Shown here in pieces: positions 5,099-52,843 of a DNA stretch of 64,000 nt (its first letter is position 1; every line of letters starts with the position of its first letter). Origin of the DNA: an uncultured Gammaproteobacteria bacterium (GTDB lineage Bacteria; Patescibacteriota; Microgenomatia; UBA10105; UBA927); assembly GCA_964553825.1 (NCBI GenBank), contig CAZKLT010000002.1, positions 66,068 to 130,067 of the forward strand, written 5' to 3'. The notes under the pieces were generated by a model. It saw only the letters and a list, made by a program, of their open reading frames with translations, did not search any database and was not told the origin of the DNA. Made by a program: the position numbers and the translations under genes.

Positions 5099-5947
5099 TT
5101 ATTTCTCTCGATTTACCGCGAGTTGTTGGATAATACCAAATATTCCAAATACATTCCAGTAGAGGGCCAGCCCCAACGGAAACTGAAAGGCGAAATATCC
5201 GAACATAATGGGCGTTATGATCATCATCTGTCTCTGAATATCACCAGCCATATCTTCCGGTTTCTTTTCAGCTTGAACTGATGCGGGCTTTTTGTCCTTC
5301 TTTTTTCTGCTGGCGTCTTCTACGATCGTATCCAACACTCGATCTCCACTCTTCGTGGGTGGCATCATGAGCTTGCTTTGCCAATACTGAAGCGCTGCAG
5401 TTATCAGAGGAATCGAAAGAAGCCACCACCCATCAGTCTGCCAAGCAGAAGGCTTCAATCCCAGATTTACGCCAAAAAATCCCAAATCAAGTGTGCTGAC
5501 ATGAAGCCAAGGCGCATAAAGTACGGCATTAAGCTCTGATACGAGCTTTTCCAGATTGCCGTTATTCAGCACATGATAAAACACGTTATACAGCGCGATA
5601 AGAACGGGCATTTGGATAAGAAGCGGGAGACATCCGGCAGCCGGATTTACTCCATGCTCCTTATATAACGCAAGCTGTGCCTGTTGAAGCGCCTGCTTGT
5701 CGTTTTTGTGCTTATCATTAAGCGCATCCAGGTGAGGCTTCATTTGGGCCATCTTTTTGGCCGACCGGAGCTGGGCCTGCATAAGCGGGTACAGAACCAC
5801 TCGGATGAGGATAGTCAGGCCTATTACCGCAAAACCAAGCGGCCCTGGGACATGAAGCCACTCAAACATCTTATACAAACCAATAAGCACATTAATGATT
5901 GGCCAGACAAGCAGTTGATTCCAAAGATTCGGATCGGTCATAGACAA
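5099..5947 (-). CDS. yidC: Membrane protein insertase YidC/Oxa1 family (short, Gram-positive-type)
   Basis: 282 aa with multiple TM helices and a conserved C-terminal basic tail (KKKDKKPASVQAEKKPED). It sits between yidD and jag. Confidence 0.85.
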   Translation of the reverse strand: MSMTDPNLWNQLLVWPIINVLIGLYKMFEWLHVPGPLGFAVIGLTILIRVVLYPLMQAQLRSAKKMAQMKPHLDALNDKHKNDKQALQQAQLALYKEHGVNPAAGCLPLLIQMPVLIALYNVFYHVLNNGNLEKLVSELNAVLYAPWLHVSTLDLGFFGVNLGLKPSAWQTDGWWLLSIPLITAALQYWQSKLMMPPTKSGDRVLDTIVEDASRKKKDKKPASVQAEKKPEDMAGDIQRQMMIITPIMFGYFAFQFPLGLALYWNVFGIFGIIQQLAVNREK

Positions 5948-6181
5948 TTACACTGGATCGTATCCACCTGGATTCCACGGGTGGCAACGAATAATGCGTT
6001 TCACTCCTAAAAGCGATCCTCGTAGTATACCATAGCGGCTGATTGCTTGGTACGTATACTCACTGCAGGTTGGCCGGAAACGACAGGCGCCATCAACAAG
6101 CCAAAGCGCTTTGAGCGCCCCTGTGTCCGGTGACAGATATCGCTGATACAGCCGGATGAGAAATAACACGGACTGTTTCAT
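5948..6181 (-). CDS. yidD: Membrane protein insertion efficiency factor YidD
   Basis: Conserved YidD motifs: [11 protein letters not shown] ... [10 protein letters not shown] ... [15 protein letters not shown]. The ORF-track ORF 5948..6298 extends upstream into rnpA. The internal Met ([18 protein letters not shown]) at 6181 gives the canonical ~77-aa protein. Confidence 0.85.
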
Positions 6182-6191
6182 AATAACGCGG

Positions 6192-6719: not shown

Positions 6720-8060
6720 TCAATTCGTTCCTTTTCTGTACCCGAAAAGTTCGTATACTGCCCCGCCACCCAAACGGAAAAAAAGAATCGATAACGCATA
6801 TCCCTGAATTATCGATATTCCGGAAACGAATGGCAGATAGTATCGCGACCAATCATTACGTAAGTACCACACCAATGCAACAAAGGTAAAGGATATCCAA
6901 AGCGGAAGAACCGCCAGTTTCGGAAATATCTCGCCGGGCTTCCAAGACGCAAACAGTGAGCGTACCATATAAAATCCTCCCCAGAGGAAGAGAATTGCAT
7001 CGATGGGCAGCAAGGCATTGGAAAAATTCCCAAATTGCGCATTTGGCAATAGCGTTCGGACAAAAATATACCACAAGGCATGCGCCCTGGTAGGAAGGAA
7101 CGTATCTGGATACTCTACAGCGTATGCTGTGCGCGCCACGTCAAACCGTGCCTGATACATGTAGACGAGCTTATGCAGCGTGTCTACATAAAGAAAGGGA
7201 TGTAACACATAAAATACGACGCTGAAAACGAATCCGGTAACAATCATCTGCGTGAAAAGCTGACGTCGAAAAACACTATCACGACAACTCAGAAGCATAA
7301 AACCGTGGTGAACAAGGACAAAAAGAAACGCAAGTACTCCTGTCACCTTCACTCCCGCAGCAAGTGCGGCACTGAATCCAACGGCAACGCTGATGAGGTA
7401 AAGTTTTTTTTGCGATCTATGACTCCATGCCTCCCGCCAAATGAGCAGAAGAAGAATCGTGCAAAGGAAAAAGGCAAGCTGCATGGTATCTGTCATCGCA
7501 AATCCCGAATGCAAGCGAAACAACGTGTTCCCAGCCAATAATAGAGCCGCAAAAAATCCAAACACGGATGACCAGACTGCAGTACCGATAAGAAACATAA
7601 GTATCACTGATACAGCGCCAAACAGTACGGCGACGCGCCGCGCAGTCATAATGAAGGAAAGACTCTGGGACAATTCCGGGGGAAATTCCCTAGGCTCCCG
7701 CAACCACAATTCAACCCACCACGGACGACCATGTATCGTAATGGTGTTAAATCCGCTCTGGCTCAGCGCATTCTCTATACGGGAAACACCGGAAAGATGC
7801 AGCGCCAATCCAAATATATAGGGCCCAACTTTTGGTTGAGGGGCATCCGATTCGATCGCTGCATCCGTCCAGAGCGGTGCATCAATGTTTCTATCAAGAA
7901 AGTACGTATCAAATAGGTAGCTTTTTCGGACAAACTCATATTCATCGATAAAAAAAACCTGCTTCTCAACTATCGGTGCCAGGGGTACCCAGGCCATAAC
8001 GAGCACAACGAAAAAGAGGATGATGTCAAGCGCACGCTCGCGCACAAATTGTATGCCCAT
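6720..8060 (-). CDS. Polytopic integral membrane protein, possible GT-C-fold glycosyltransferase or DUF membrane protein
   Basis: 446 aa. One N-terminal TM, a soluble stretch of about 130 aa, then at least 8 TM helices. No definitive motif was recognised. Confidence 0.3.
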   Translation of the reverse strand: MGIQFVRERALDIILFFVVLVMAWVPLAPIVEKQVFFIDEYEFVRKSYLFDTYFLDRNIDAPLWTDAAIESDAPQPKVGPYIFGLALHLSGVSRIENALSQSGFNTITIHGRPWWVELWLREPREFPPELSQSLSFIMTARRVAVLFGAVSVILMFLIGTAVWSSVFGFFAALLLAGNTLFRLHSGFAMTDTMQLAFFLCTILLLLIWREAWSHRSQKKLYLISVAVGFSAALAAGVKVTGVLAFLFVLVHHGFMLLSCRDSVFRRQLFTQMIVTGFVFSVVFYVLHPFLYVDTLHKLVYMYQARFDVARTAYAVEYPDTFLPTRAHALWYIFVRTLLPNAQFGNFSNALLPIDAILFLWGGFYMVRSLFASWKPGEIFPKLAVLPLWISFTFVALVWYLRNDWSRYYLPFVSGISIIQGYALSILFFRLGGGAVYELFGYRKGTN

Positions 8061-8063
8061 TGC

Positions 8064-9710
8064 TTACGGAGCCACTTCCTGCCACGTCATGGGGATATCG
8101 CGCATTTCGTCCGGCATGGTCAACAGGAGCTGTGGGTTATAAATAAACAATTCCGAAGCTGTTGTGTCATTGGCGCTCACGCTATCCAAATCTCGTGCCA
8201 AATTGAAATTACCGGCGATAAAAATTCCCTCGGCAACAAATCGCTCGGACCCCGCTACTGACGAGGTGCCCGTAGAAAATGTTCCGGAGGGAGATGTAAT
8301 ATAGACGCCCTCAACCACTGGCGCCGATGACGCGGCGCTCCCTCCAACGCTCGGATCCACGACTATGTCTCCGTTGACGATGAAAGAAACAAATCCTGTC
8401 CCGCTGAGATTAATATCCTGATTAATCGTGAGGTTGCCATTGACGAGTACCACGATGCTTTCGCCTGGGGCAACACTCCAGGGATTGGTATCTATCGTAA
8501 GATTACCATCGACATAATACGTTCCGTTTGCGAGCTTACCGGTGAATGTCGTGTCTCCGCTATAGTCAGGATCCGGCGAATCATATCGGTGATACATGAT
8601 GGCATAAAAATCGGTGGGGGAATACGTTTCATTCACGAGCCACCCCGTCGATGAAATGTATGCCTCTCCCAAACCTCCAGAATCGCTATCGAAGTCATAC
8701 GAAACCCCATAGCTGGCAACGCCCGGAAGTCCAGCGCCTCCATTGAGAAGTCCATACCTCGGTGTTGCTAGGGGTGGAATAGGGGAAGAAAGACCGCTTG
8801 CGGCATAAACATCCCCGTCACTGGTCTGAAACCATGAGGTTCCAAAGGTATACCCCAAATCCCATGTTAACGTTGTGTTATTTGACAGATCCGCAGTAAG
8901 GGAAGACCCTTGAGCGGCAGGAACATCGGTTTGCCAGCAGGCGTACCGCAGAACATACCCTGCCGAAGCCGCACTTGCCAGTGTATACGTATCGACAAAG
9001 GCCCCTCCCCATGCCGCATAGGCGCCTCCTGCCGCAACCTGCGAGCCTGGTGCAACATTAGGGGAAAGCGACATTGTAGCGGAAAGATAGTCAGTGCTTG
9101 CACGCACCTCGGCACATGTCGTTGCAGAAGCGGGAATGATAACTGCCCGAGCCTGAATCGTGCCAGAGGCCGGAACGCCACCCGTTGGTGTAGGCGTACT
9201 TCCAGCGTAGCCTCCCTCGCTATAGCTATACGATCCGCCGCCAGGACAGGAACTGCAGCTTACGCCGCCACAATCATCCACGCTGCCGCAGCCGCCCGGA
9301 CAGCCGCCCAGGCCACACGTTGGGCTGCACGAAATGGCATTGCAGCCGACGTTACAACTGGACAATGTTGAGCATGCGCCGCCGTTTTCTATACAATCAT
9401 CGAGCTCTTGGCATGTGGATGTTTCGGTACACTTCCAATATTGGACCCACTGTTGCGTTGGGCCGCATCCGTTTACACCACATCCCTGATCCTCTGCGCA
9501 ATTCTTCGTATAACCGATTCCCGTAGGCGCTGGTCCACAACAGGTATCACCGTTGGTACACACACCTATCGAGACTTCTCCAGATGAACATCCACTACTG
9601 CGACAAGATCCGCTGCATCCGTTATACTGCGCAGACACCGGATGAGCAACCATAGATAGCAACGTCGCTACGGATAAAAGGAATAAAATAAATACTTTCA
9701 TTATTCTCAT
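8064..9710 (-). CDS. Secreted cysteine/glycine-rich protein with a C-terminal parallel beta-helix-like domain
   Basis: Signal peptide MRIMKVFILFLLSVATLLSMVAHPVSA. It is followed by about 150 aa with about 45 Cys (CSGSCRSSGCSSGEV... CGPAPTG... CPGGCGSVDDCGGVSCSSCPGGG), then a TPTPTGG linker. NxT/G-rich repeats follow (VNGNLTINQDINLSGTGFVSFIVNGDIVVD), typical of right-handed beta-helix proteins. Confidence 0.5.
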   Translation of the reverse strand: MRIMKVFILFLLSVATLLSMVAHPVSAQYNGCSGSCRSSGCSSGEVSIGVCTNGDTCCGPAPTGIGYTKNCAEDQGCGVNGCGPTQQWVQYWKCTETSTCQELDDCIENGGACSTLSSCNVGCNAISCSPTCGLGGCPGGCGSVDDCGGVSCSSCPGGGSYSYSEGGYAGSTPTPTGGVPASGTIQARAVIIPASATTCAEVRASTDYLSATMSLSPNVAPGSQVAAGGAYAAWGGAFVDTYTLASAASAGYVLRYACWQTDVPAAQGSSLTADLSNNTTLTWDLGYTFGTSWFQTSDGDVYAASGLSSPIPPLATPRYGLLNGGAGLPGVASYGVSYDFDSDSGGLGEAYISSTGWLVNETYSPTDFYAIMYHRYDSPDPDYSGDTTFTGKLANGTYYVDGNLTIDTNPWSVAPGESIVVLVNGNLTINQDINLSGTGFVSFIVNGDIVVDPSVGGSAASSAPVVEGVYITSPSGTFSTGTSSVAGSERFVAEGIFIAGNFNLARDLDSVSANDTTASELFIYNPQLLLTMPDEMRDIPMTWQEVAP

Positions 9711-9712
9711 GT

Positions 9713-10363
9713 TTATTTATCGCATAATCGGAACGATAACTGAATAATTCTAGGTACTATGGGAGTTCCGCGGGCGCTATACGAAAACTGCTGAGGACTC
9801 GGCGATTCAATGGAAACGATATCGCCCACACAAAAAAGCTCGGTGTACCGATTGTCCCTGATGGTTGAGACAAAATCCCGCTCGCCAATGGAGTCGGCAA
9901 CGCCATAATTATCCAACTTCGGCACCACAGCCATGGATCCGTCCAAGTCTGGGTCAAATCGAACCGATACCGGCCTGCCTAAATAGGAACTCAGAGTCAA
10001 AAGATGGCTTTGCGGATTCCATGTGGAGACCATGCCGTAGATCGTATAGCCTTGGATTGTTCCATCTTTCTTAAACGACGGGACCACGCGAGGGGGGCGA
10101 AAAACATACTTATCACCGTTCCCATACAGCCGGTTGAGCGCCATCATGGACGATGATCGTGCGATAAACGCCTGATTCTGCCTTTCGTCGAATTTCTTAC
10201 GATATGCCTCAACAGATTGAGTCGCTACGAGTGCAGACCGATACAGTACAGAAACGCCCAAAACCATCAAGCTGGCAAACACAATAATTCCCAATACTAT
10301 CCACGCTATTTTCTTCACACTTCTACTATACACCACGTGCCGAAGGAAAAAGCAATACACCAT
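9713..10363 (-). CDS. Hypothetical membrane-anchored protein (single N-terminal TM)
   Basis: 216-aa ORF. TM segment IAWIVLGIIVFASLMVLGVSVLY, then a soluble domain with no recognisable motifs. Operonic with the flanking genes (3-bp and 23-bp gaps). Confidence 0.35.
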   Translation of the reverse strand: MVYCFFLRHVVYSRSVKKIAWIVLGIIVFASLMVLGVSVLYRSALVATQSVEAYRKKFDERQNQAFIARSSSMMALNRLYGNGDKYVFRPPRVVPSFKKDGTIQGYTIYGMVSTWNPQSHLLTLSSYLGRPVSVRFDPDLDGSMAVVPKLDNYGVADSIGERDFVSTIRDNRYTELFCVGDIVSIESPSPQQFSYSARGTPIVPRIIQLSFRLCDK

Positions 10364-10385
10364 GTTGAGACTCTTTGAAGGGAGG

Positions 10386-12317
10386 TTACCGACCCTGAAT
10401 GTTGGTAGCGATGACTACCTGTCCTGAACCAAGATTATCAATGAGCCATTGTGCCATACGCTCGCCATCCGGTGATGATGCCAACAACGCTTTCCATAAC
10501 GACGTTTGATCCGATGTAGATAGAGTTATAAGTGTTACTTTTGTTGAAAATACTGTTTTTCCTATCTCCTGGAGATACCTTAATTGTGCGTCGCGAAATT
10601 CTTCCAGTCGTGGTTCGTGGGCGCTTACGACAACGACGCGCACGTTCTTTCCGTCCTCACCCTGCACGATGGCTTCCCAGAATACCATGTGAACGATTCC
10701 CTCTGGCGTCTGCATGCTCCCTATATAGCGGGTCGTGAGGTTTTCGGGCGTCCCGTACATGGCGACGCTGACACCATTGGCGCCTTTGTTCACCGTAAAA
10801 GTAACGGGTGTTACAGAATCAATATTCGCCGTTAACTTCGGATCGGCAAGTATTTTTTGCTCAAGGAAGGGAACCTGTTCCGCGCTCATTTCCGGAAAAC
10901 TATTCCACCCGATTGACGTAAAGCTCTCTGTTGTTACCGCTTTTCCGACCGGTACTGCTGCAATAACCTCAGCGATCTTCTCCCACGTCCTGGTAAGCGT
11001 GTTGAACCATTCGGAATAGTATTGCTTTCCGTTGATCGTCACTGGGCTTCGTAAGGCTATAACAAATCCATTCACGAGGACTGCTTTCGCATCTTTCGTG
11101 TTTTCAACCTCACGAAGCACTATCCCATCACCCGGATGAATTCCCTGCTCATCGACTTTCAAGATTGTAGGATAGGTCGTTTGTGCACCTTCACCGTCTT
11201 CAGACCATAAGATATTCCCGGTGGCAACTCTGCGAAGCACCATATTCCAGGAATTTCCGTCAAACAGATACTCAATGACCACTTCCGTCCTTGCATATCC
11301 GCTTGCTTCTGCAAGTGCATATGCGGCATTTTCATATACCACAAGCTTCGCCTCGGGAACGCCAGCCTTGGTAATAATTTCGTTTCGTCCGCTTCCCCCG
11401 GAGCCCGGGAGGTATTCAGCCCCACTCATGGACGGGGGACCATATACGGCGGCTGTAGGCGCCGCTTCTGTTGAAAATGGCGCAGGAGTAGGCCCAACTG
11501 TTGATTCTACAGTAGGCTCTGGGCCTCCTGCTCCCGCATCTGCTGTTGGTGTAAACACTTCACCAGCAGGCGTGGAAGTGCCGACAGGTTGTTCATCATC
11601 TCCTGCAGTATACCCAGGCAAACATGAAGCTAACCAGGTCGCCAGTAAGCCAACAGTTACAACAGCCCTGATCACTTTGCGACGATAAGACGCCCGTGAA
11701 GAAACTTTCGCTGTTTTCGGAGCGGTCTTTGTGACCACATCGGTCTCAGGCTCAATCACTTCAAGCGCCCCAACTTCAACACGATTTTCTGATTCCCGCG
11801 CAAGCACCTGCTCTCGTTCGAACCTGCGTGTGCTTTCCAACCATTCTTGCCACGCCTCTTTATGCCGTTCAAGAGCCTCTTTCGGATCTTGGTTTCCCGC
11901 GAGTCGAAAGGCGTCATCTTTTGATAGGGTACCCGCTTCGGCAAACCGCTGAATGGCGTTTAATCGGACACTCTGGATGGCAAATTCCCTTGCCTGAAGC
12001 TGCGGGATAAATGCATGCTCCCCATTGCGCTTATGTCGCAATTCCAAACTCGGCACGATAACATCGACAGTTCCACCCGCTGTTAATGCGCCAAGAGCGA
12101 TCTTTTCGGTCATCTCGTAGACTCTGTACGGAGAATAGGGGGCGCCGTCAGGCTTGTCATAGAAGTACCCATGATCCCGCGCAAGCCGGTGAACCTTCAC
12201 CTCAAACTTTTCCAATACGATCTGAGTTAATTCAGCGTTAAGGTCAAAAACCTGAATGTCTCCGAGACGCTGCTCGGCACCTTCATTTGTTTCACGAGTT
12301 TCCAGCATACCTGGCAT
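10386..12317 (-). CDS. Hypothetical bitopic membrane protein: cytoplasmic N-domain of about 210 aa, TM, Pro/Thr/Ala-rich linker, large extracytoplasmic domain
   Basis: 643 aa. TM segment VIRAVVTVGLLATWLASCL, a low-complexity linker (PTADAGAGGPEPTVESTVGPTPAPFSTEAAPTAA), and no recognised catalytic motif. Confidence 0.4.
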   Translation of the reverse strand: MPGMLETRETNEGAEQRLGDIQVFDLNAELTQIVLEKFEVKVHRLARDHGYFYDKPDGAPYSPYRVYEMTEKIALGALTAGGTVDVIVPSLELRHKRNGEHAFIPQLQAREFAIQSVRLNAIQRFAEAGTLSKDDAFRLAGNQDPKEALERHKEAWQEWLESTRRFEREQVLARESENRVEVGALEVIEPETDVVTKTAPKTAKVSSRASYRRKVIRAVVTVGLLATWLASCLPGYTAGDDEQPVGTSTPAGEVFTPTADAGAGGPEPTVESTVGPTPAPFSTEAAPTAAVYGPPSMSGAEYLPGSGGSGRNEIITKAGVPEAKLVVYENAAYALAEASGYARTEVVIEYLFDGNSWNMVLRRVATGNILWSEDGEGAQTTYPTILKVDEQGIHPGDGIVLREVENTKDAKAVLVNGFVIALRSPVTINGKQYYSEWFNTLTRTWEKIAEVIAAVPVGKAVTTESFTSIGWNSFPEMSAEQVPFLEQKILADPKLTANIDSVTPVTFTVNKGANGVSVAMYGTPENLTTRYIGSMQTPEGIVHMVFWEAIVQGEDGKNVRVVVVSAHEPRLEEFRDAQLRYLQEIGKTVFSTKVTLITLSTSDQTSLWKALLASSPDGERMAQWLIDNLGSGQVVIATNIQGR

Positions 12318-12374
12318 ACAAACCTATAGTATCAACTACTATACGGCTTGTCAATTCTATGCACCTCTTTCGTA

Positions 12375-12995
12375 TCATCCTCGTAGACCGCTTGTCAATG
12401 ATGTGAACACCTCACGCAGTAAGAGACGACAAAGAAACTTAATAGTCCTCAGAGCCAGACGCATATCATAATTCCAGCTTTTCTTTTTTATATAGGCGAT
12501 ATCGCTTTTCATCCATGCATCGAACGCCTGTGTATGGTAGCCGTTTACCACCCAGGGGGAGATAATTCCCGGCCGTATCGTATGCCTTTTGCGCTGCCAC
12601 GCGGTCAGCTTTGCTGCTTCCGAAACTGGCAACGGGCGTGGTCCAAACAGCGCCATGTCACCGTGCAATACATTAAAAAGCTGCGGCAACTCATCCAGCC
12701 CTGTATGCGCCAGAAACTTGCCCACACCCGTAAATCGCGGGTCATTGAGCATTTTAAACACCGGACCGTGCGCTTCGTTCTTCTTCCTCAACGCTGCCTG
12801 CTCTTGTTCGGCATTGCGGCGCATCGTGCGAAATTTGTAGAGAAAAAACGGCTTTCCGTTCATACCTATACGCTTCTGCGAGAAAAAAACCGGAAAGCCG
12901 CTCGTAAGCACGATAACCAGACCGATACCGATCTGCATCGGCAAGGAGATGATCACTAACGCCAAAACAAATAGAATAGCAACCGCGTCTTTCAT
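12375..12995 (-). CDS. Polyprenyl-phosphate sugar-1-phosphate transferase (Bac_transf family, WbaP/WcaJ C-terminal-domain type). Initiating glycosyltransferase.
   Basis: 206 aa. N-terminal TM, then conserved motifs SQKRIG.NGKPF..YKFRTM and DELPQLFNVLHGDMALFGPRP. Confidence 0.8.
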   Translation of the reverse strand: MKDAVAILFVLALVIISLPMQIGIGLVIVLTSGFPVFFSQKRIGMNGKPFFLYKFRTMRRNAEQEQAALRKKNEAHGPVFKMLNDPRFTGVGKFLAHTGLDELPQLFNVLHGDMALFGPRPLPVSEAAKLTAWQRKRHTIRPGIISPWVVNGYHTQAFDAWMKSDIAYIKKKSWNYDMRLALRTIKFLCRLLLREVFTSLTSGLRG

Positions 12996-13004
12996 AGTAT
13001 CAAT

Positions 13005-13832
13005 ATGCCCTTGCTACACGCTATCCTCCATGCAACCCTCTATGTCGTAGAGTATAATACGCCCATGCAAACCGATGTACGCCACTTTATAGAATTACTG
13101 TGGGCCATGACGGAAAAAGAGCTTCGTGCAAGGTATAAGAATACCATATTCGGTTTCGTATGGCTGATCGTCAATCCGCTTTTGCAAATGCTTGTCATCG
13201 GCTTCATCTTTAACTTCTTTATGAATGAGCCTATCAAAAATTACTTCTTTCATCTGTTTATCGGGCTTCTTTCGTGGAATTTCTTTTCTACATCCATCAC
13301 GAAAGCCACGCCATCGGTCGTCTTTGAGCGTGGACTTATCAAAAAAGCCGCATTTCCAGTCGCGGTCATCCCGCTTTCAATCATTCTGTCCAATATTATC
13401 CATTTTGCCATTGCCTTCGGCATGCTGCTCGTACCCGTGTTCTTCCTCGGGACAATGACCATGCTCACCATACCGCTCACCATCGCGGCGTTGCTTACGC
13501 TCTTTATGTTTACCATCGGCCTTAGCCTTATGACGTGTGCGCTAAACGTACGTTATCGGGACGTGAATTTTTTCATCCAGGCGCTGCTTATTATCTGGTT
13601 TTACGCTACCCCCATCGTCTATTCACTTTCTCAAATACCTCCAGGTACTCAGTGGTTATGGAACTTTAACCCGTTTACCACCATCATTCAGCTTTTACAG
13701 CACGCACTCATCCTGGCAGCGCCACCCGCCATAGGCGCGCTACTGACGAATATTGCCATCGTTATGGCGACGTTTTTCCTTGGCATATATGTATTTAATA
13801 AGGAAGCCAAAAATTTCGACGACTGGGTATGA
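13005..13832 (+). CDS. ABC-2 type polysaccharide/teichoic-acid exporter permease (Wzm/TagG-like)
   Basis: 275 aa with 6 TM helices and an ABC-2 family topology. Its stop overlaps the start of the downstream ATPase (ATGA coupling). Confidence 0.75.
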   Translation: MPLLHAILHATLYVVEYNTPMQTDVRHFIELLWAMTEKELRARYKNTIFGFVWLIVNPLLQMLVIGFIFNFFMNEPIKNYFFHLFIGLLSWNFFSTSITKATPSVVFERGLIKKAAFPVAVIPLSIILSNIIHFAIAFGMLLVPVFFLGTMTMLTIPLTIAALLTLFMFTIGLSLMTCALNVRYRDVNFFIQALLIIWFYATPIVYSLSQIPPGTQWLWNFNPFTTIIQLLQHALILAAPPAIGALLTNIAIVMATFFLGIYVFNKEAKNFDDWV

Positions 13833-14584
13833 AAAAAAATAAAGAGATAGCCATACAGCTTTCCAACATCAGCAAACGCTATGAAATTCACCATGACAAG
13901 CCGACACTGGCTGAAACGTTGCTTCATGGGCGCAACGAACTGTTCTGGGCGCTAAGAGACATTAACCTCTCCATACGCAAGGGTGAACGCGTCGGCATCA
14001 TCGGTCCCAATGGTTCCGGAAAAACAACATTGCTGAAAATCATATCAGGCATTGCAACACCCACAACCGGCACAGTGCAGACAACGGGCCGCCTGGTATC
14101 TCTTATCAACCTTGAAGCTGGTTTTCTCCCAGAATTAAGCGGCATTCAGAATATTTATCTCAATGGTATGATTCTTAACATGAGTAAACGGGAAATCGAT
14201 GCGAAAATAGATGCGATCGTCAAATATGCCGACATCGGCAGATTCGTGGACGCACCCATGTTCACCTATTCAGACGGCATGAAGCTAAAACTGGGCTTCT
14301 CCATCACGATTCATACTAACCCCGACATTCTTATATTGGATGAAAGCATGTATGTCGGAGACCAGAAATTTCAGGATAAGGCGCTGCGAACTATCGAGAA
14401 GTTTTACAAAATGCACACAACGATTCTTATCGTGACACATTGGCTTTCCTATGTGAAAAATAATTGCGACCGCATCATTGTGCTCGAGAAAGGACGAATC
14501 GCCAAAAACGGATCCAAAAAACTCGTCGATAACTTTTACCGATCTATGCAGGGGAAAAATCTTGAGTATACAGCGCCACTGTAA
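13829..14584 (+). CDS. ABC transporter ATP-binding protein (Wzt/TagH-like, short form)
   Basis: Walker A GPNGSGKTT, signature YSDGMKLKLGF, Walker B ILILDES. Confidence 0.8.
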   Translation: MKKNKEIAIQLSNISKRYEIHHDKPTLAETLLHGRNELFWALRDINLSIRKGERVGIIGPNGSGKTTLLKIISGIATPTTGTVQTTGRLVSLINLEAGFLPELSGIQNIYLNGMILNMSKREIDAKIDAIVKYADIGRFVDAPMFTYSDGMKLKLGFSITIHTNPDILILDESMYVGDQKFQDKALRTIEKFYKMHTTILIVTHWLSYVKNNCDRIIVLEKGRIAKNGSKKLVDNFYRSMQGKNLEYTAPL

Positions 14585-14600
14585 CCTAACGCACTCAGCC

Positions 14601-15479
14601 ATGAACTCGTCTTTCGTTCGACAATCCCATGCCCCAAAAAACTGGTGGAAAAAAGAGTTCGGCAGTTCCTACTATACCCTGTACAATCCCGTCCTAAACC
14701 CGCAGCGCACCAAACAGGAAGTATCATTTATCATTCGCGCGACGGGCCTTGCTCGTCCGACGCGCATTCTAGACGTTGGTTGCGGACATGGCAGGCACGC
14801 CATAGGACTCGCGAAGATGGGACATGACGTTATCGGCATCGATTATTCGACGTATTTTCTTAAAATTGCCCGAACGGAAGCAAAAAAACAGCAGGCCACC
14901 GCTACATTTATCCGTCAGGATATTCGCAGCATGAATTTTTCAGACGAATTTGATGTCGCGCTTTCTATGTATTCTGCTTTTGGATACTTCTCGTTGCGCG
15001 AAAATCTTACGGTCCTTCGCCGGATCCATTCGGCACTCAAGCCGGGCGGAAAATTTCTTCTGGATGTCATCAATGCCGAATGCCATGTCAAACACATCAC
15101 GTCGGCAGGGAAAAAAGTGAAAAAAGGTATTTATCAATTTTCCCAAAACAACGAAATAAACGGCTACAGTGTTCAGGATACCAATATTTATTTCACCAAA
15201 ACGCAGTTGGATTCCTATCATAGGCGTTGGCGAAAAGGAACAAAAACAGGGTCCTATAATTACTATATGTACCAATACACCGTGCCACAGTATCGCGACA
15301 TGCTTAGGCTGACAGGATTTGAAATGCTTAACATTTGGGGAGACTATCAAGGCGCACGATGGAGCCCAAGCAGCTGGCGCACCATTATCCTGTGCTACAA
15401 GCCTCGCAGCGGTGTCTTCGACAAAAACAAAATCGCGCAGTGGATTCAATTACGATTGTTACGCCGATGGCCGGATTGA
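14601..15479 (+). CDS. Class I SAM-dependent methyltransferase
   Basis: Motif I ILDVGCGHGRHA plus post-I acidic GIDYS. The ORF-track ORF 14478..15479 overlaps the ABC ATPase. The first non-overlapping Met (MNSSFVRQ) at 14601 was chosen as the start. Confidence 0.7.
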   Translation: MNSSFVRQSHAPKNWWKKEFGSSYYTLYNPVLNPQRTKQEVSFIIRATGLARPTRILDVGCGHGRHAIGLAKMGHDVIGIDYSTYFLKIARTEAKKQQATATFIRQDIRSMNFSDEFDVALSMYSAFGYFSLRENLTVLRRIHSALKPGGKFLLDVINAECHVKHITSAGKKVKKGIYQFSQNNEINGYSVQDTNIYFTKTQLDSYHRRWRKGTKTGSYNYYMYQYTVPQYRDMLRLTGFEMLNIWGDYQGARWSPSSWRTIILCYKPRSGVFDKNKIAQWIQLRLLRRWPD

Positions 15480-15480
15480 T

Positions 15481-16233
15481 ATGACACGTAATTCTGTGAA
15501 AGCTGTACTGCTTTTGGCGGGGGATGGGGGACGGCTTAGGCCGTATACTGCTACTCGACACAAAAGTCTCATCCCGATTGCAGGCAAACCAATTCTCTGG
15601 TATTCGATGATGAATCTCATCCAACTTGGAATCTCAGAGTATATTCTTGTGCTCGGACACCAGGCAGAAAGCGTCAAATCGTATATACAAACGACATTCC
15701 CGAATAGTATGTGCACATATGTCATAAACGACAGATATCGCGAAACGAATGTTGTGTACTCATTTTATCTCGCGTGCACGCATCTTCAAAACTCAGGATT
15801 TCTTCGCGTTGAAGGGGACCTTCTGTATAATAGAGCGATTGCGCGGCGACTTTTGGATTCGGGAAAACAACTTGTGTCAGCCGTTGAGCCGAGAGACAGA
15901 CGATCGGCGGAAGAATTCTGCGTGCAGGTGGACAAAGCGTCACATACGATACTTCGGTATGGGAAAAATCTCCCCAATCGGTCTGTGTATGGTATAGCCC
16001 AGGGGATAGATTTCGTTTCCCAGAAGGCCGCATGGTCAGTGTCGCAGGAGCTAGCGCGGATTGTCGAGGAGGGAAATCTGGATCAATACGCCGAATACGC
16101 ATTCGAGCGACTCTCTCAGCGCAGCGTCTATCACCCTTCGTACTGCGATATACAGGCGAGCGATTTTTGGTGTGACATAGACACCGCTGAGGATATCCTA
16201 TATGCGACAAAACATATTGACAAGCTTACCTAA
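15481..16233 (+). CDS. Sugar/alcohol-phosphate nucleotidyltransferase, LicC-like cytidylyltransferase family (NTP_transferase fold)
   Basis: AVLLLAGDGGRLRPYTATRHKSLIPIAGKPILWY matches the G-rich NTP_transferase N-terminal motif. It is about 250 aa, the same size and pattern as LicC/TarI-type CTP transferases. The internal Met at 15481 was chosen because the upstream part of the listed ORF (15319..) overlaps the methyltransferase. Confidence 0.65.
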   Translation: MTRNSVKAVLLLAGDGGRLRPYTATRHKSLIPIAGKPILWYSMMNLIQLGISEYILVLGHQAESVKSYIQTTFPNSMCTYVINDRYRETNVVYSFYLACTHLQNSGFLRVEGDLLYNRAIARRLLDSGKQLVSAVEPRDRRSAEEFCVQVDKASHTILRYGKNLPNRSVYGIAQGIDFVSQKAAWSVSQELARIVEEGNLDQYAEYAFERLSQRSVYHPSYCDIQASDFWCDIDTAEDILYATKHIDKLT

Positions 16234-28103: not shown

Positions 28104-29636
28104 CTACATACTAATTCTTGAGTAAATCGTGGCTCTTGTCTCAGGAAATATTTTTACTTTTACCACATCTGGACAACGACCCCTATTAAGGATGTCAATA
28201 AAAACGACTTCGGGAAATGCTGACTCCAGCAAACACGCCTCTCGTTCGTTTGAAGCAATAATCGGTGGAGCGCTTTTATAGCGTCTTGCATACCACAAAA
28301 GACTTATTTGAGCTCCCTGACCTGGCTCATCAGAGCTATACGTTACTATTTGCTTTGTGGTAATTTTACTTGCCATAACAACAGCATCTTTAAAACCATA
28401 AATAGATTTTGAGAAATTTCTTGGAAGACCAAGCGCGCCCTGCATCTGTCCATTTATCCATGAATAAGTAAAAACGCTAGTCAGTGCAATAACATATATT
28501 ATTGATGCCCTACGTTTCAGTCGAAATAAGGGAGTAACTAAAAGAAAGTACATAATCGGCAAAGCAAAAAGATAGTGTCGCACATGAAACGATGCATATT
28601 GACTATATAAAGCTATTGCAATAACTATCGTAATTGACCACAAAAACAAACTCAGGAAATAAACGGTTTTTTTCGTAAAAAAACAAAGTCCATAGACTAT
28701 GATTCCCAACAAGAAAATAAACTGTGCTCTTTCAGCCAACAAAACTTCATGCATATGTACAAGCGGACTCATAACGAATGAAAAAGTAGGAATCGTCTGA
28801 GGGACGGTAGCAATAAGCATTTTGTGAAAAAATATCACAAATAGTCCAACAAAAATGCCAAGCATGAATATCGCCTGACGTCTATTCTTTTTATCGCACA
28901 GACTCCATACTAAATATGGAATGACTATAATATGCTGGTAAATGGAGTTTACGGTAAAAATTACGACAATAGGAAAATTTTTTGTTGAGTAAAAAGACCC
29001 ATAGTCCATCATACGTACAGCGAGAATAACACCAAGAAATGATAATGCATAGAATCTGACTTCATAAGAGTATTGCAGTAAAAACGGATTTAAAAAATAC
29101 AATAAGAATATACATATTCCTATAAACATCTTTTCGAGATAGCTTCTTTTATAAGAAGCCTGATTTAGGGCATAAAAAACTAAAATTATCCCTGCAACAA
29201 TATGGAAAATCATATACGGAATTCGATAAATAAATTCCTGGTAATCCTTTGAAAAGAAAATTACTATGTGATTCCAGGCCCACATGTTCCAATAATCCAA
29301 AGGCAATGCTGAGGCATGCCACATAAACACTGATCGAGCGATCAAAGAAAAAGGGGATTCTGCAATCTGAATTACTCCAACTTCGTCACTCCACAATTCA
29401 AGAGAATTGATATTGTGAAAGTTAATGAGGTAATATGAAGCACCTATAGCCCAGAGTGCAAGTCCTATAAATCGCCGATCAAACGAAAGGTTTTTTAAAT
29501 GCAAAATGATTACATTCAAAAAAATATATAATAGTACAATGTACCATAATAAAGACAGGCTAGAAGCATAAAAAAGAAGAATAATGGCAACAATAAACAC
29601 GAAATTCTTAACTATCGATGGACTCAAATTTGCCAT
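28104..29636 (-). CDS. GT-C fold membrane glycosyltransferase (ArnT/PMT-like, GT39/GT83-type). Low-GC gene.
   Basis: 510 aa with about 12 TM helices. An acidic motif LWSDEVG in the first extracytoplasmic loop is the DE motif of GT-C enzymes. The coding sequence is conspicuously AT-rich compared with its neighbours. Confidence 0.5.
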   Translation of the reverse strand: MANLSPSIVKNFVFIVAIILLFYASSLSLLWYIVLLYIFLNVIILHLKNLSFDRRFIGLALWAIGASYYLINFHNINSLELWSDEVGVIQIAESPFSLIARSVFMWHASALPLDYWNMWAWNHIVIFFSKDYQEFIYRIPYMIFHIVAGIILVFYALNQASYKRSYLEKMFIGICIFLLYFLNPFLLQYSYEVRFYALSFLGVILAVRMMDYGSFYSTKNFPIVVIFTVNSIYQHIIVIPYLVWSLCDKKNRRQAIFMLGIFVGLFVIFFHKMLIATVPQTIPTFSFVMSPLVHMHEVLLAERAQFIFLLGIIVYGLCFFTKKTVYFLSLFLWSITIVIAIALYSQYASFHVRHYLFALPIMYFLLVTPLFRLKRRASIIYVIALTSVFTYSWINGQMQGALGLPRNFSKSIYGFKDAVVMASKITTKQIVTYSSDEPGQGAQISLLWYARRYKSAPPIIASNEREACLLESAFPEVVFIDILNRGRCPDVVKVKIFPETRATIYSRISM

Positions 29637-38931: not shown

Positions 38932-40941
38932 TTATATAAACAAATACAGGAAATCACCAGGCGGGGCAACTTCTGCTGATTCTTCCTGACACTGTTTTTT
39001 GGGAGAAGCAAACTTCTGACAGAACTCGAGCACTTCATGCGCCTTCTGAGAATCACCACCAACATGATAGTAATATCGCGCCAGATCAATATGGATAAAG
39101 CCAAGATCAGGATATATGTCGCGGGCAAACAGTAAAAGTGACTCTGCAAGTTTGCTATCAGAAGGCATCGCCTCCAAGGCGAGCACATACGCTGCGCCCG
39201 CATACCCCTCTCTCCATTGCGGCTTGGCACGACCATATACTTGCTGCAGAGCGGTTCCAATCCGGATTGATATGTTTTCCAAGGAAAAAAGATCGCTCCG
39301 TCCGTTGCGTGGCCACTGGCGCTCAAATAACCGAATAACCGCTTCTCCCGCCTCCTCAGAAGATAAAAACTTCGCTACATATCCGAGGTAAGAGGAGATA
39401 TACATTTGGTTGTGGGGGTCACCGTCCATGGTGCGGGCATACCACATCTTGGCCTCCGCTTCGTTCTTGTCGATGGAATAAGTTGCCATTGCATAGGCAA
39501 CTTCGGGATCCTTCCTGTGAAAAAAAGCAATTAGGCGCTCGGGCGCTCCCGCGCGATACCGTCTTGCTTCAGATTCTTGCCGGAGATAATCCAATGCACT
39601 CGTTACCATGTGGGGCTGCAAGATATAGGCAGTCCGGTAGTCCTTCCAAACCACACCAAAAAGCGTAGCTATCACCGCAAAACAGTAATATACTCCCAAA
39701 ATTCCCGAAAACAAGCTCGGTGAAAAAAAATGCTCTCCGTGAGCATCACTACGCTCATATATCGCAACACGCCGATAGAGAACTCCCAGCGTTGCCCAAA
39801 AAAGAATCCATATAACAAGAAAGTCCAAAAGCATCTCAAAAAAACTGTATACAAGTACGAGTATCACAGCGTGAAAAAGCGCGGTGCGCGCCCGATCAGA
39901 CTCCTTTTTTGTTTTCCTGCCCCGCATAATGAGAAAAAGGGGGTACCCCACGGCCGCACTCACACTCAAAAGTCCTATTAAGCCGGTTTCCGACAAGGTC
40001 TGAAGGAAAAAACTATGCGCATACCAGGAGTTGGTAGAAGAGGCTTTTTGATATTTCCGGGATATAAGATAATACGTGCCCGGTCCAAAACCGGTAATTG
40101 GCCGGTGGACAAATGCGCTTGCTGCCTGACTCCAGTACTGGATCCTGCTTTGAAGAGCAGCTCCTTTTGACGCCGATCCCGGCAAAATCGATGGCCGCGC
40201 CAAAACAACGAACAGCATACACACCGCAAGAAGCCCTCCGACAGCAACCAGTTTTTTCTTTTCAAGGTGTGACCTCAGTGAAAAAAGAAACCACGCACCA
40301 TACGCCAAAAAAACAACAATCGCACCTCTGGCCCTGGATAGCACAACGGCTGCGCCAAAGCTGAAAAAAGCCGCCCAAACAGCAGGACTCCGAGCGGAAA
40401 ATAATTCCCCTACGATAAAGGGCAGGACAAAAATAATGATATCAACGATATGATTGTGACCATAAACCGGAAATAATAGATTCATGCCCGGCAGAAACGC
40501 TCCGAGCCGAGAAAACGCAAGCACAATAAACGACGCTCCCACACACCCCGCCGCAAAAACAAGAAGTCCTCGTACAAAAGTTGCGGCTTGAACTTCTTTC
40601 TGGGAAAATGCAAAATATCCAAACGCCATGAAGGCGATACTGTAACGAACCAAACTCGTAACAGAATACCCCGGACTGTCAGAAATAAATACGCTAATAA
40701 AAAAATAGACGAAAAGCGTCCCCCACACAATTCGGAATGCCCTTGTGGGTTTAAGAAATGAGACCCCTGAAATGAGCGCAATAAGATAAAGTGCAAGAAT
40801 AAATGCGACACCAGCGACGTCTATTGTCCCTTGTTTATCGTCACCGAGAAATACCAAAAAGAATAACCCAACGAAAAATACAAGGACTTTCAAAAAAAAT
40901 AGGCGGAAGAAATTCATACCAAGTTTACAAAAACAGATCAC
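38932..40941 (-). CDS. O-antigen ligase/Wzy-like polytopic membrane domain fused to a C-terminal TPR/Sel1-like repeat region
   Basis: 669 aa. The N-terminal roughly 400 aa have at least 10 TM helices. The C-terminal roughly 230 aa are helical repeats (AYAMATYSIDKNEAEAKMWYARTMDGDP..., ARYYYHVGGDSQKAHEVLEF). Confidence 0.45.
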   Translation of the reverse strand: MICFCKLGMNFFRLFFLKVLVFFVGLFFLVFLGDDKQGTIDVAGVAFILALYLIALISGVSFLKPTRAFRIVWGTLFVYFFISVFISDSPGYSVTSLVRYSIAFMAFGYFAFSQKEVQAATFVRGLLVFAAGCVGASFIVLAFSRLGAFLPGMNLLFPVYGHNHIVDIIIFVLPFIVGELFSARSPAVWAAFFSFGAAVVLSRARGAIVVFLAYGAWFLFSLRSHLEKKKLVAVGGLLAVCMLFVVLARPSILPGSASKGAALQSRIQYWSQAASAFVHRPITGFGPGTYYLISRKYQKASSTNSWYAHSFFLQTLSETGLIGLLSVSAAVGYPLFLIMRGRKTKKESDRARTALFHAVILVLVYSFFEMLLDFLVIWILFWATLGVLYRRVAIYERSDAHGEHFFSPSLFSGILGVYYCFAVIATLFGVVWKDYRTAYILQPHMVTSALDYLRQESEARRYRAGAPERLIAFFHRKDPEVAYAMATYSIDKNEAEAKMWYARTMDGDPHNQMYISSYLGYVAKFLSSEEAGEAVIRLFERQWPRNGRSDLFSLENISIRIGTALQQVYGRAKPQWREGYAGAAYVLALEAMPSDSKLAESLLLFARDIYPDLGFIHIDLARYYYHVGGDSQKAHEVLEFCQKFASPKKQCQEESAEVAPPGDFLYLFI

Positions 40942-41965
40942 TCCATCGCACCATTGCCAATCTTAACCTGTCGAAGTAGTCGGTTTTAGGAAAATTGATA
41001 CGCTCTGCCATCTCCCGGTAACAGGCGGCGGGGGTTTTTTGCGTGAGCTCTACTGCTGCAATCCGCTCCCAGAGGACCTCGTTGACGGCAAGGCCGCTTT
41101 TTTCCTTAATTAAATTCTTCTGAGGGTCCGACGCTTTTCGGTGCTCTACAAATGGGGATCCGTTGGCTACGGCCCACCCGAGATGATCAAGAACTTTTTT
41201 TGTAAATATTCCCGCCCAAATATCATCAAACCGGTCAAATCCCCAGGCGTTTCCCAGCGGGTCATATCCCATGAGCGGAAAATACATAAGCGGCGTGACC
41301 TCACGGGTGAAAGCGAGATTCATGGAACTCATGGGAAAATACTCACCCCTGGGAACAAAACTCCGCAATAGGGGATATGCAGGAATGTTGACATCGCCGA
41401 TGGTGAGCTGCGTCTGCGCGTCCATGTCCATCTTGTTTGACCAAAGCCCGTGGTTCACGACAACCCGGCGCTTCCCACGAATTGCATACGGGAAACCCCG
41501 CGTGTAGAGATACGCAGGGTGGGGAAACGTAGGGAACCAGCCTTCAGGAGCAGAGGCGGCCAGAGCATCAAGATGTTTCTCAACAAACTGCTCTTCGGCC
41601 GGAAAACAGTCATCGTCGAGCGTGAGTATCACGTCAGCGCCAAGGGTATACGCTTTCCAAAACCCAAACGACCGGATTCCTGCGTTCTGACGGGAAAAAA
41701 TCCACTCATCCACTCCAAACTCCGAAGCGATATCTCTCCAATCAACATGATGAATGGAGGCAAACTGCCCGGACGGAGACTTCACCGTTTTTGCCGGACG
41801 ATCCTCAACAATAAGGAGGTGGCAATCGCGAAATTGTCCCTGCCACTCTGCAAGAAAATCAAGATTACGAATTGTGGGAATAACAAGAAATACTTTCATC
41901 TTGTGCCGAAAAGAAATCTTTCTAAGGGTATCACACGCGCCCACGCATAGGGAAGTGCGCCTCAT
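40925..41965 (-). CDS. Reversibly-glycosylated-polypeptide (RGP)/GT75-like protein (UDP-arabinopyranose-mutase-like fold)
   Basis: LIVEDRPAK... and the DxD context VILTLDDDCFP resemble the RGP family core. The likely start is the internal MKVFLVIPTIRN. This is a remembered motif similarity, not a computed alignment. Confidence 0.4.
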   Translation of the reverse strand: MRRTSLCVGACDTLRKISFRHKMKVFLVIPTIRNLDFLAEWQGQFRDCHLLIVEDRPAKTVKSPSGQFASIHHVDWRDIASEFGVDEWIFSRQNAGIRSFGFWKAYTLGADVILTLDDDCFPAEEQFVEKHLDALAASAPEGWFPTFPHPAYLYTRGFPYAIRGKRRVVVNHGLWSNKMDMDAQTQLTIGDVNIPAYPLLRSFVPRGEYFPMSSMNLAFTREVTPLMYFPLMGYDPLGNAWGFDRFDDIWAGIFTKKVLDHLGWAVANGSPFVEHRKASDPQKNLIKEKSGLAVNEVLWERIAAVELTQKTPAACYREMAERINFPKTDYFDRLRLAMVRWSDLFL

Positions 41966-44841: not shown

Positions 44842-44845
44842 ACTA

Positions 44846-44864
44846 TGTGGACAACTTATCCACC
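44846..44864. promoter_or_regulatory. Two DnaA-box-like 9-mers upstream of dnaA (autoregulatory region)
   Basis: tgTGGACAA at 44846..44854 is the reverse complement TTGTCCACA. TTATCCACC lies at 44856..44864. Each has one mismatch to TTATCCACA. They sit 35-50 bp upstream of the dnaA ATG. Confidence 0.5.
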
Positions 44865-44897
44865 ATACTCCCGCCCGACTCGCCCTGGTGTAATCCT

Positions 44898-50911: not shown

Positions 50912-50916
50912 GAATG

Positions 50917-52842: not shown

Positions 52843-52843
52843 A

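Follow-up and report, generated by a model that had tools for sequence, protein, structure and literature searches.

The stretch of DNA analyzed here, in the following called the window, comprises 64,000 nucleotides (nt) of contig CAZKLT010000002.1 from assembly GCA_964553825.1. Four adjacent genes on its minus strand are the subject of this report. They are referred to by working names in which the number gives the residues (A643, B216, C548 and D446); homologs are designated by P-numbers and loci by L-numbers. A643 (gene 1, 10386..12317) has no match in Pfam, NCBIfam or PHROGs. B216 (gene 2, 9713..10363) consists of a signal-anchor helix and an extracytoplasmic domain. C548 (gene 3, 8064..9710) is a secreted modular protein, and D446 (gene 4, 6720..8060) is predicted to be a polytopic, PMT-like GT-C glycosyltransferase. 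Bacteria from the Candidate Phyla Radiation (CPR) are thought to live attached to other cells, and their surface proteins are barely known. The block is a concrete, conserved candidate surface module in Candidatus Gottesmanbacteria and a solid lead for CPR envelope specialists. It offers three testable features: a variable head on a solenoid foot, a tail motif and a putative partner lipoprotein with an internal signal.

The open reading frames (ORFs) of A643, B216 and C548, taken from an ORF list, were found at precisely the coordinates given in an earlier annotation of this DNA that was made from the sequence only (the original prediction). The gaps between the genes are short: 22 nt between A643 and B216, 2 nt between B216 and C548, and 3 nt between C548 and D446. 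A sigma70-like promoter (TTGACA-17-TG-TACTAT; 12326..12354, minus strand) sits in the 57-nt spacer 5' of A643. This is a consensus match only, and it is the best one (10/12) on both strands within 4.4-13.2 kb. Its -10 element stops 9 nt short of the A643 ATG, so that the predicted mRNA would be nearly leaderless. No Shine-Dalgarno sequence was found ahead of A643, B216 or C548. There is no strong minus-strand terminator-like site in these three genes; the single weak match (5 pairs, 9108-9093) is within C548. The block is best explained as one transcription unit with four genes, A643-B216-C548-D446, from a genome of Candidatus Gottesmanbacteria. The original prediction had described an operon led by the Cys-rich protein, which is C548. 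The close-packed single unit stands, but as all genes are on the minus strand, C548 comes third rather than being the leader, and the promoter match lies ahead of A643. The gene upstream of A643 codes for a Bac_transf polyprenyl-phosphate sugar-phosphate transferase (12375..12995, minus strand; PF02397, E=4.7e-52). Located 3' of D446 are rpmH (found by translation), rnpA, yidD, yidC and jag, the latter names being taken from syntenic loci. Paralogs of A643, B216 or C548 were not found elsewhere in the window.

C548 begins with a Sec signal peptide (residues 1-27; 9630..9710, minus strand), which is read from the sequence as MRIMKVFILFLLSVATLLSMVAHPVSA-QY with cleavage after VSA. The mature N-terminus, QYNGC, is common to the homolog P0001. 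The signal peptide is followed by a Cys-rich region (residues 28-160; 9231..9629, minus strand), which was characterized by counts, an AlphaFold2 (AF2) model and codon comparison. It contains 22 Cys, all within residues 32-155; C548 has 24 Cys in all and 30 Gly in its first 170 residues. The original prediction of about 45 Cys in about 150 residues was a two-fold overcount, while the signal peptide, the CxxC, CC and CGxxGC patterns and a short linker (STPTPTGG) are seen as it had described them. At 22 Cys per 130 residues, the density is nonetheless extreme, compared with 0.84% Cys over 48 ORFs of the window, the next-densest of which reaches 11. Residues 32-120 are modeled as small beta modules with a predicted local distance difference test score (pLDDT) of ~80. 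A subsequent module (CGLGGCPGGCG..DDCGG..CSSC) is predicted to be disordered, with low confidence. The first six Cys (residues 32-58; window 9534-9617) are spaced as C-x3-C-x4-C-x9-C-x5-CC, and three short strands are predicted there. Spacing and strands are reminiscent of beta-defensins, which is only suggestive. A beta-defensin module was considered for this segment and rejected (Pfam Defensin_beta_2: 10.8 bits, E=0.68, cut-off 22.2).

That the Cys-rich segment is truly coding follows from a comparison of codons 28-160 with P0001, which is 76% identical. In this range, 41 codons are identical, 52 differ synonymously and 38 non-synonymously, and all 22 Cys are kept despite the 52 synonymous changes. 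Judged from these codons, the segment is under purifying selection in the C548 frame. A translation artifact, caused by GC-rich or repetitive DNA or by a gene on the opposite strand, had been a worry of the original prediction. It is refuted to the point of having virtually no chance: an open stretch of 161 codons is indeed present on the opposite strand, but it is broken in P0001 (longest stretch 83), the region has no tandem or dispersed repeat, and AF2 folds the beta modules. Repeats or cassette copies of the C548 gene were not found in the window.

The C-terminal ~360 residues align across the whole C548 family. The AF2 model, computed from 48 sequences, has a mean pLDDT of 83, with values >90 over residues ~180-530. 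This part starts with a beta-sandwich (Ig/CnaB/prealbumin-like; residues ~186-290; 8841..9155, minus strand; pLDDT >90 in AF2) that contains the Cys pair C199/C258. Two Cys are found in the conserved part of nearly all homologs. Weak Pfam matches of homologs to the sandwich region are to SdrD_B, SpaA and CarboxypepD_reg. The sandwich is followed by a beta-solenoid (residues ~291-530; 8121..8840, minus strand; Pfam and AF2), modeled with pLDDT values of 90-98. The beta-helix-like domain of the original prediction is thus recovered as a beta-solenoid. Within it, residues 390-486 match Pfam DUF7305 (PF23981) with 31.5 bits (E=2e-7), compared with a gathering cut-off of 27. DUF7305 is also annotated in many homologs and was found in P0006 and P0014. 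It is the sole family assigned in A643, B216 and C548 by Pfam, NCBIfam and PHROGs, and a recognizable catalytic family is absent, in line with the original prediction. Profiles of the three proteins gave nothing significant against PDB sequences. Weak Foldseek matches of the sandwich are to CnaB-type domains of Gram-positive pilins. The solenoid has weak matches to ice-binding DUF3494-type proteins (E=0.06-0.4; template modeling (TM) score 0.39-0.44 relative to the target) and to ComZ (6qvi_C; E=0.073, TM score 0.22/0.24, root-mean-square deviation (rmsd) 19.6). ComZ is a competence pilin that bears a solenoid (PMC6561018). An assignment as ice-binding DUF3494 protein was rejected, as there is a fold resemblance only and no Pfam match. 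The invariant and near-invariant columns among 48 homologs hold Gly, Trp, Tyr, Phe and aliphatic residues, and lack an acid/base set. We therefore read the solenoid domain as a scaffold, not as an enzyme.

The family is rare. A search of 5.8 billion protein clusters returned 50 relatives of C548. A scan with one genome per species detected 38 loci with the family, and a metagenome scan added 69 more. Where taxon labels of the 38 loci are informative, they are Candidatus Gottesmanbacteria or "Patescibacteria group", with three loci labeled Chloroflexi; the remaining loci carry uninformative placeholder labels ("uncultured Gammaproteobacteria/Pseudomonadales"). The family is almost confined to Gottesmanbacteria and other Microgenomates. 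Between homologs, the N-terminal region varies in length (0-515 residues) and in its number of Cys (0-48). Types of Cys-rich repeats differ by genome. For example, CGDGTCxGSETCxxCxxDCGxC occurs in many family members, and Pfam is blind to these repeats. Thrombospondin-type-1-like repeats (WGxCSxSCGxGxQT), also not recognized by Pfam, are found in the N-terminal regions of P0021, P0023 and P0025. As length, Cys number and repeat type of the N-terminal region vary, and the C-terminus is conserved, the variability of the family resides in its Cys-rich part.

A further conserved element is the C-terminal tail of C548 (residues 531-548, ..DEMRDIPMTWQEVAP-COOH; 8067..8120, minus strand), which is predicted to be unstructured. 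Its consensus, P(V/I)(T/S)W(Q/E)EVAP-COOH, is found in nearly every family member. The pattern W[QE]EVAP-stop occurs 40 times in the window and 45 loci, and in most of the 48 aligned homologs. In the C548 model, pLDDT drops to 77 and 48, respectively, over the two final blocks of 10 residues. As the extreme C-terminus is strongly conserved yet unstructured, it looks like a docking or sorting motif. Other types of anchors were considered and rejected. C548 has no sortase LPXTG anchor, as it ends with ..IPMTWQEVAP and no hydrophobic segment follows. It also does not start like a type IV pilin, as the N-terminus is an ordinary Sec signal (MRIMKVFILFLLSVATLLSMVAHPVSA, then QYNGC), without prepilin leader and without an N_methyl match in Pfam. 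Neither SLH nor any other S-layer family matches C548 in Pfam or NCBIfam.

Several observations concern the surroundings of C548 homologs. Extra 3' ends of the gene (..MRDVPITWEEVAP-stop) are located downstream of the gene itself in L027 (8500-8660 and 9880-10190) and in L013 (~1980-2022). Two copies in L027 are split between ITW and EEVAP by a repeat of ~45 nt (CCTTCGTCCCTCGACTAGGCTCGGGACTACGGACGGGTGA). Either an exchange of cassettes or a mobile repeat of small size could account for this. In L036, the homolog is flanked by two short A643-like lipoproteins that are 82% identical to each other (5123-6187 and 8595-9671; 354 and 358 residues) and have an ordinary N-terminal signal. The last ~100 residues of the L036 lipoprotein are 72% identical to the end of the ORF of the C548 homolog, an ORF that continues past the family match in L036. 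In L004, a gene for a 123-residue 23S_rRNA_IVP or bAvd-like four-helix bundle (9516-9887) is located between the C548 homolog and the GT-C gene. Proteins of the bAvd kind are found together with diversity-generating retroelements.

A643 had been described as bitopic, with a large cytoplasmic N-terminal domain and an extracytoplasmic C-terminal domain, and this topology is supported: ~210 residues inside, one helix and ~410 residues outside. The cytoplasmic domain (residues ~20-180) is followed by the helix (208-230), a Pro/Thr-rich linker (233-290) and two ectodomains (~291-460 and 461-643). The AF2 model has a mean pLDDT of 81. The cytoplasmic part exceeds 90 over residues ~40-170, and the ectodomains are also confidently modeled. 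C232 is the only Cys among the 643 residues. It is part of a lipobox (LASC) directly after the sole membrane helix and is followed by LPGY. The sequence has positive charges before the helix and acidic residues after it. Together, these elements make up an internal lipoprotein-type signal segment (residues 211-232, ..RRKVIRAVVTVGLLATWLAS-C; 11622..11687, minus strand; C232 codon at 11622-11624). A643 fits the lipobox pattern [LVI][ASTVI][GAS]C after a hydrophobic segment with upstream positive charges. In an N-terminal signal, the Cys is within about the first 40 residues, and in A643 it is at position 232.

C232 is invariant in all eight A643 homologs. Manual inspection of 22 A643-like proteins from related loci revealed a hydrophobic stretch followed by [G/A/S]-Cys in each of them; these proteins are a separately chosen set that partly overlaps the 29 loci used below for gene linkage. 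Nine of the 22, with lengths of 640-775 residues, have no other Cys. An exhaustive profile search for relatives covered 1.84 billion representatives and returned only 53. In some of the relatives that were inspected (P0054, P0057, P0064, P0067, P0069, P0078, P0085 and P0087), the same motif is an ordinary N-terminal lipoprotein signal, for example MKNLTLLFTLLLIVSAC, while others have 170-250 residues ahead of it. An internal start that yields an ordinary lipoprotein was considered, as a GTG at 11675 fits; no other start across the window matches the lipoprotein signal pattern. It was rejected, because the homologs have no conserved start codon at this position. The domain ahead of this position is in frame, and its codons (58 synonymous compared with 54 non-synonymous in the cytoplasmic part) are read as evidence of purifying selection. 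As a conserved internal start is also lacking, the fusion protein must be made. These features suggest that A643 is a lipoprotein precursor with an internal signal peptide. We know of no described lipoprotein class with such a cytoplasmic extension, and in the literature we found no account of lipoprotein precursors with an internal signal behind a folded cytoplasmic domain. A MerR-like helix-turn-helix at residues 104-128 was also considered and rejected, as this stretch is modeled as one long helix and has no family match. The original prediction had overlooked the invariant A643 lipobox, the conserved C548 tail and the variable nature of the Cys-rich part within the family.

B216 has the single membrane helix that had been assigned to it, an N-terminal signal-anchor helix at residues ~19-42, and an extracytoplasmic domain of ~170 residues. 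The latter has two invariant Cys (C177 and C213) and an invariant RFDP motif (D in 4/5). Only four relatives were found among 5.8 billion clusters, and there was no match to Pfam, NCBIfam, PHROGs or PDB sequences. For codons 46-216, 71 synonymous and 49 non-synonymous differences were counted, which is read as purifying selection. Homologs begin at the equivalent of V15/K16. The true start may thus be ~14 codons downstream of the listed ATG.

Conservation of the three-gene linkage had been named in the original prediction as a decisive point. It is found in most Gottesmanbacteria loci and in L006, L116 and L117. In most Gottesmanbacteria loci, the order is Bac_transf, A643-like, B216-like, C548 and GT-C. 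In close relatives, it continues with rpmH, rnpA, yidD, yidC, jag, Wzy_C and a flippase. Linkage was counted on 29 non-redundant loci that have enough upstream sequence. In nearly all of these, a large protein is encoded ahead of the C548 homolog, and under a strict filter 15 of these loci have a lipobox in it. An N-anchored protein of ~160-300 residues is encoded between the two in about half of the 29 loci, and upstream of the large protein in a few. The order of a large protein, one of ~190 residues and the C548 homolog also occurs in three unrelated neighborhoods, which brings the total to at least four: among translation genes in L006 (Beckwithbacteria), beside rplA, rplK and nusG in L117 (lipobox LSSC at C78) and beside a pilus cluster in L116. 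Between loci, the A643-like and B216-like proteins are without detectable sequence similarity; they fall into several sequence groups with mosaic domain sharing. Conserved architecture and position without sequence similarity is as expected for fast-evolving surface proteins.

The surroundings of the block are rich in glycan genes. According to Pfam scans, the window from ~1.8 to 44 kb is one long envelope-glycan region. It includes Bac_transf, two ABC-2 exporters (TagGH-like), a TagF-like glycerophosphotransferase, TagA/WecG, three Wzy_C proteins, a flippase, several GT2 and GT4 glycosyltransferases, and sugar-modifying enzymes. The locus is mainly wall-glycopolymer or teichoic-acid-like machinery, not a protein N-glycosylation system. 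The "neighboring glycosylation machinery" of the original prediction is thus mainly of another kind, although one candidate protein glycosyltransferase remains, D446, which would point to O-glycosylation of the Pro/Thr linkers. N-glycosylation of C548, as had been suggested, found no support. No STT3/PglB-type family was detected by Pfam among 45 scanned ORFs of the window (most of those with at least 180 residues), and the sequon excess is marginal. C548 has 8 sequons, compared with 4.9 expected by whole-protein shuffling (P=0.09); for the C-domain, it is 8 compared with 3.3 (P=0.008). The best-kept sequon (NLT426, in 38 of 48 homologs) lies in a conserved GNLTIN motif of the C-domain, which accounts for part of the excess, so that its conservation may be structural.

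D446 has at least eight hydrophobic segments and a DE motif (FIDEYEF, residues 37-43) after the first helix. Its Pfam PMT score is marginal (24.6 bits, cut-off 22.7), and PMT_2, with 18.8 bits, is under the cut-off of 26.1. D446 can thus be assigned, marginally and by sequence features, to the PMT family of GT-C enzymes. Orthologs (42-54% identical) are encoded downstream of the C548 homolog in L002, L003 and L004, and other loci have two GT-C genes at this position. Actinobacterial Pmt O-glycosylates linkers. By analogy, D446 could O-glycosylate the Pro/Thr/Ser linkers of A643 (residues 233-290) and C548 (residues ~160-185). It could equally act on the wall polymer.

From these data, we tentatively propose, at somewhat less than an even chance, that the block builds a cell-surface display or attachment module. 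C548 would be exported by Sec and folded with disulfides, for which the even numbers of Cys (22 in the head plus the sandwich pair) would be suited. The disulfides would make the variable head compact and protease-resistant, and this head would bind an external ligand, for example a mineral, a polymer or the cell of a host. The foot that keeps C548 on the cell would be the conserved C-terminal half, tail included. This foot may be held by the ectodomains of A643 and/or B216, or by a wall glycopolymer made by the surrounding ~40-kb locus. A643 would be modified with diacylglyceryl at C232. Signal peptidase II may then cut A643 at C232 into a lipoprotein on the surface and a separate cytoplasmic fragment anchored by its tail. 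O-glycosylation of the Pro/Thr/Ser linkers of A643 and C548 would be the task of D446. A bolder extension, which we hold to be improbable, is that A643-type proteins are a new class of lipoprotein precursors, which Lgt and LspA split into 1:1 products or which provide cross-membrane coupling. Together with B216, the lipoprotein would form a receptor that keeps disulfide-rich proteins with exchangeable heads on the cell by their TWQEVAP tails. This would be a lineage-specific sorting and anchoring system of Microgenomates that requires neither sortase nor known wall-binding domains.

A number of points weigh against this proposal. Interaction, localization, lipidation, disulfides and glycan of the trio are all inferred. 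The A643 model has no Foldseek match in PDB at E<0.001, and the C548 model has none in PDB or among viral structures at the same threshold. A motif scan for lgt and lspA detected neither in the window and the short locus flanks, which is not informative. Eight of the non-redundant loci (L014, L023, L026, L031, L032, L035, L060 and L083) have no B216-like gene upstream of the C548 homolog. Profile-profile and iterative hidden Markov model searches did not link B216 or the domains of A643 to their distant positional equivalents. The conservation of these two proteins is, as far as sequences tell, one of position and architecture only, and it could partly reflect non-homologous replacement. Also, the C548 tail is conserved though A643 and B216 are the least conserved genes of the locus, and a conserved partner would be expected. 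Finally, the two distant loci beside type IV pilus genes fit the first of the following alternatives.

C548 may instead be a pilus-associated adhesin, a Sec-exported non-pilin protein whose solenoid and tail attach to a type IV pilus at its tip, comparable to PilY1 on minor pilins, and which presents the Cys-rich head there; A643 and B216 would be assembly or docking factors. We consider this rather unlikely. The conserved domain matches DUF7305, and homologs have sub-threshold matches to DUF2572 over the same region; both families presumably occur in minor pilins of the PilX/ComQ type. A variable N-terminus with a conserved C-terminus mirrors what is generally known of PilY1. In L116, a pilus cluster (8588-15557) that starts 0.7 kb downstream holds five N_methyl pilin genes, a prepilin peptidase, PilC and PilB, and L115 (1-1659 and 15701-16270) has PilM and PilO, which are upstream, and one pilin. 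However, pilus genes are numerous in these small genomes, so that adjacency at two distant loci may be due to chance, and no pilus gene was detected in the Pfam scans of the window or in the gene tables of the inspected Gottesmanbacteria loci. C548 has a Sec signal peptide and lacks a prepilin leader and the N-terminal pilin helix. The weak Foldseek match to ComZ (6qvi, E=0.07) speaks for a pilus role, but with its low TM scores (0.22-0.24) and an rmsd of 19.6 it is not significant.

The genomic context would also suit a role of the trio in export, length control, attachment or cleavage of a wall glycopolymer, with a solenoid that binds or cleaves polysaccharide. In Gottesmanbacteria, the trio is located between the initiating transferase and one or two GT-C genes, in the ~40-kb glycan locus. 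Right-handed beta-helices are, as is generally known, common in polysaccharide lyases and hydrolases, and the fold resembles the flat-surfaced solenoids of the DUF3494 type. Yet the invariant and near-invariant columns of the 48 homologs include no Asp, Glu, Lys, Arg or His, and no LCP, Wzz, lyase or hydrolase family is matched in Pfam or NCBIfam. In L006, L116 and L117, the trio is not located beside glycan genes, and a hypervariable Cys-rich head is hard to explain in a housekeeping factor. We regard such a role as unlikely.

A signaling pair seems very doubtful. Here, A643 would be a sensor of the ToxR/ToxS or anti-sigma type with B216 as co-sensor and C548 as ligand or target, and cleavage at the lipobox would free the cytoplasmic domain. 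A large bitopic protein followed by an N-anchored protein of ~200 residues is what such a pair looks like. The cytoplasmic domain of A643 is folded and under purifying selection, and a lipobox processing site is located at the outer end of its helix. On the other hand, this domain matches no DNA-binding, anti-sigma, kinase or other signaling family in Pfam or NCBIfam and has no fold match, and the suspected helix-turn-helix-like stretch is one continuous helix in the model. Between loci, the cytoplasmic domains are non-homologous, vary from ~30 to 480 residues and are absent in several relatives.

The original prediction had offered a surface adhesin, an S-layer or a glycoprotein system. Of these, the S-layer is the least likely, as S-layer proteins are as a rule Cys-poor. 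C548 would have to be a lattice-forming canopy on membrane stalks (A643 and B216), comparable to SlaA/SlaB of Sulfolobales. A secreted protein without an anchor of its own is indeed encoded beside membrane-anchored partners within an envelope locus, and ultra-small groundwater bacteria of these lineages reportedly show surface layers in cryo-electron microscopy. But S-layer proteins are typically abundant in addition to being Cys-poor, while the C548 family is rare, its outer part of 0-515 residues is hard to fit into a regular lattice, and no S-layer family is matched, so that we give this option hardly any weight.

The proposed display or attachment module would combine elements of which some are already known. 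For the C-terminal domain of C548, a DUF entry exists already, and surface proteins that join a variable head to a conserved anchor are familiar. What is undescribed, as far as we found, is the combination of swapping Cys-rich heads with a WQEVAP tail, with a putative partner lipoprotein whose signal is internal, behind a folded cytoplasmic domain, and with a trio that recurs across neighborhoods. Literature on DUF7305, DUF2572, Gottesmanbacteria lipoproteins, CPR signal peptidase II and Cys-rich Patescibacteria surface proteins held nothing relevant. If A643 is processed as its sequence suggests, this widens what a bacterial lipoprotein precursor can look like. Otherwise, the block remains useful as a marker for envelope biology that is specific to the lineage.

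Some further features of the window are distant from the block. The region 44757-47566 codes for dnaA and dnaN, and the GC skew changes its sign at ~46 kb. The window thus spans the replication origin, ~33 kb away from the trio. A Gram-positive-type conjugation or type IV secretion-like block is located at 48602-61971. It codes for an M23 peptidase protein with a Cys-dense stretch of its own (11 Cys per 130 residues; 48602-50911), a VirB4/TraG-type ATPase (50917-52842), a PrgI-family protein (53505-55013), a coupling-protein-like ATPase (55102-57288) and a protein of 1353 residues without family assignment but with a C-terminal membrane helix (57910-61971). Inside the glycan locus, an ORF at 40925-41965 (minus strand) matches PF03214 ("reversibly glycosylated polypeptide", E=1e-44). 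The best-known members of this family are the UDP-arabinopyranose mutases of plants. At 28104-29636 (minus strand), the GC content drops to 36%, compared with ~47% around, and a polytopic protein of 510 residues without a Pfam match is encoded. The latter may be a laterally exchanged polymerase or GT-C enzyme of the glycan locus.

The block can be compared with several known systems. In gene order and membrane topology, A643 and B216 resemble the ToxR/ToxS and GspL/GspM pairs. No similarity to these was found in sequence or fold, and A643 differs by its lipobox and by ~410 residues outside. With DUF7305 proteins and minor pilins of the PilX-ComZ type, C548 shares the solenoid, which passes the gathering score of the family and has a weak fold match to ComZ. 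Unlike these, it has a cleavable Sec signal, a beta-sandwich, Cys modules and the WQEVAP tail. Tip adhesins of the PilY1/PilC type are, as is generally known, also exported by Sec, and they likewise pair a binding region that varies, at the N-terminus, with a C-terminal docking domain that is conserved. C548, however, lacks the PilY1 beta-propeller, Pfam scans detected no pilus gene in the window, and the link consists of two distant loci.

Secreted surface proteins that combine a conserved module for non-covalent anchoring with a variable functional module, and that are encoded in a wall-polymer locus, are generally known from the Cwp/PSII system of C. difficile and the SLH/CsaB system of B. 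anthracis (secondary cell-wall polymer). C548 differs in that it has no CWB2, SLH, LysM or choline-binding domain according to Pfam; polymer binding by its solenoid is conjectural. Actinobacterial O-mannosylation (Pmt, GT39), which acts on secreted proteins and lipoproteins rich in Pro/Thr, is similar in that a PMT-type GT-C enzyme with the DE motif is predicted to be co-transcribed with two exported proteins that have Pro/Thr/Ser linkers, one of them a predicted lipoprotein. It differs in that the Pfam score of D446 is marginal and that the enzyme could have the wall polymer as its substrate. With bacterial lipoproteins, the substrates of Lgt and LspA, A643 shares a canonical lipobox (L-A-S-C), and it has relatives with ordinary N-terminal signals. 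What sets A643 and most of its positional equivalents apart is that the signal is internal, located behind ~30-480 cytoplasmic residues, which in A643 are folded.

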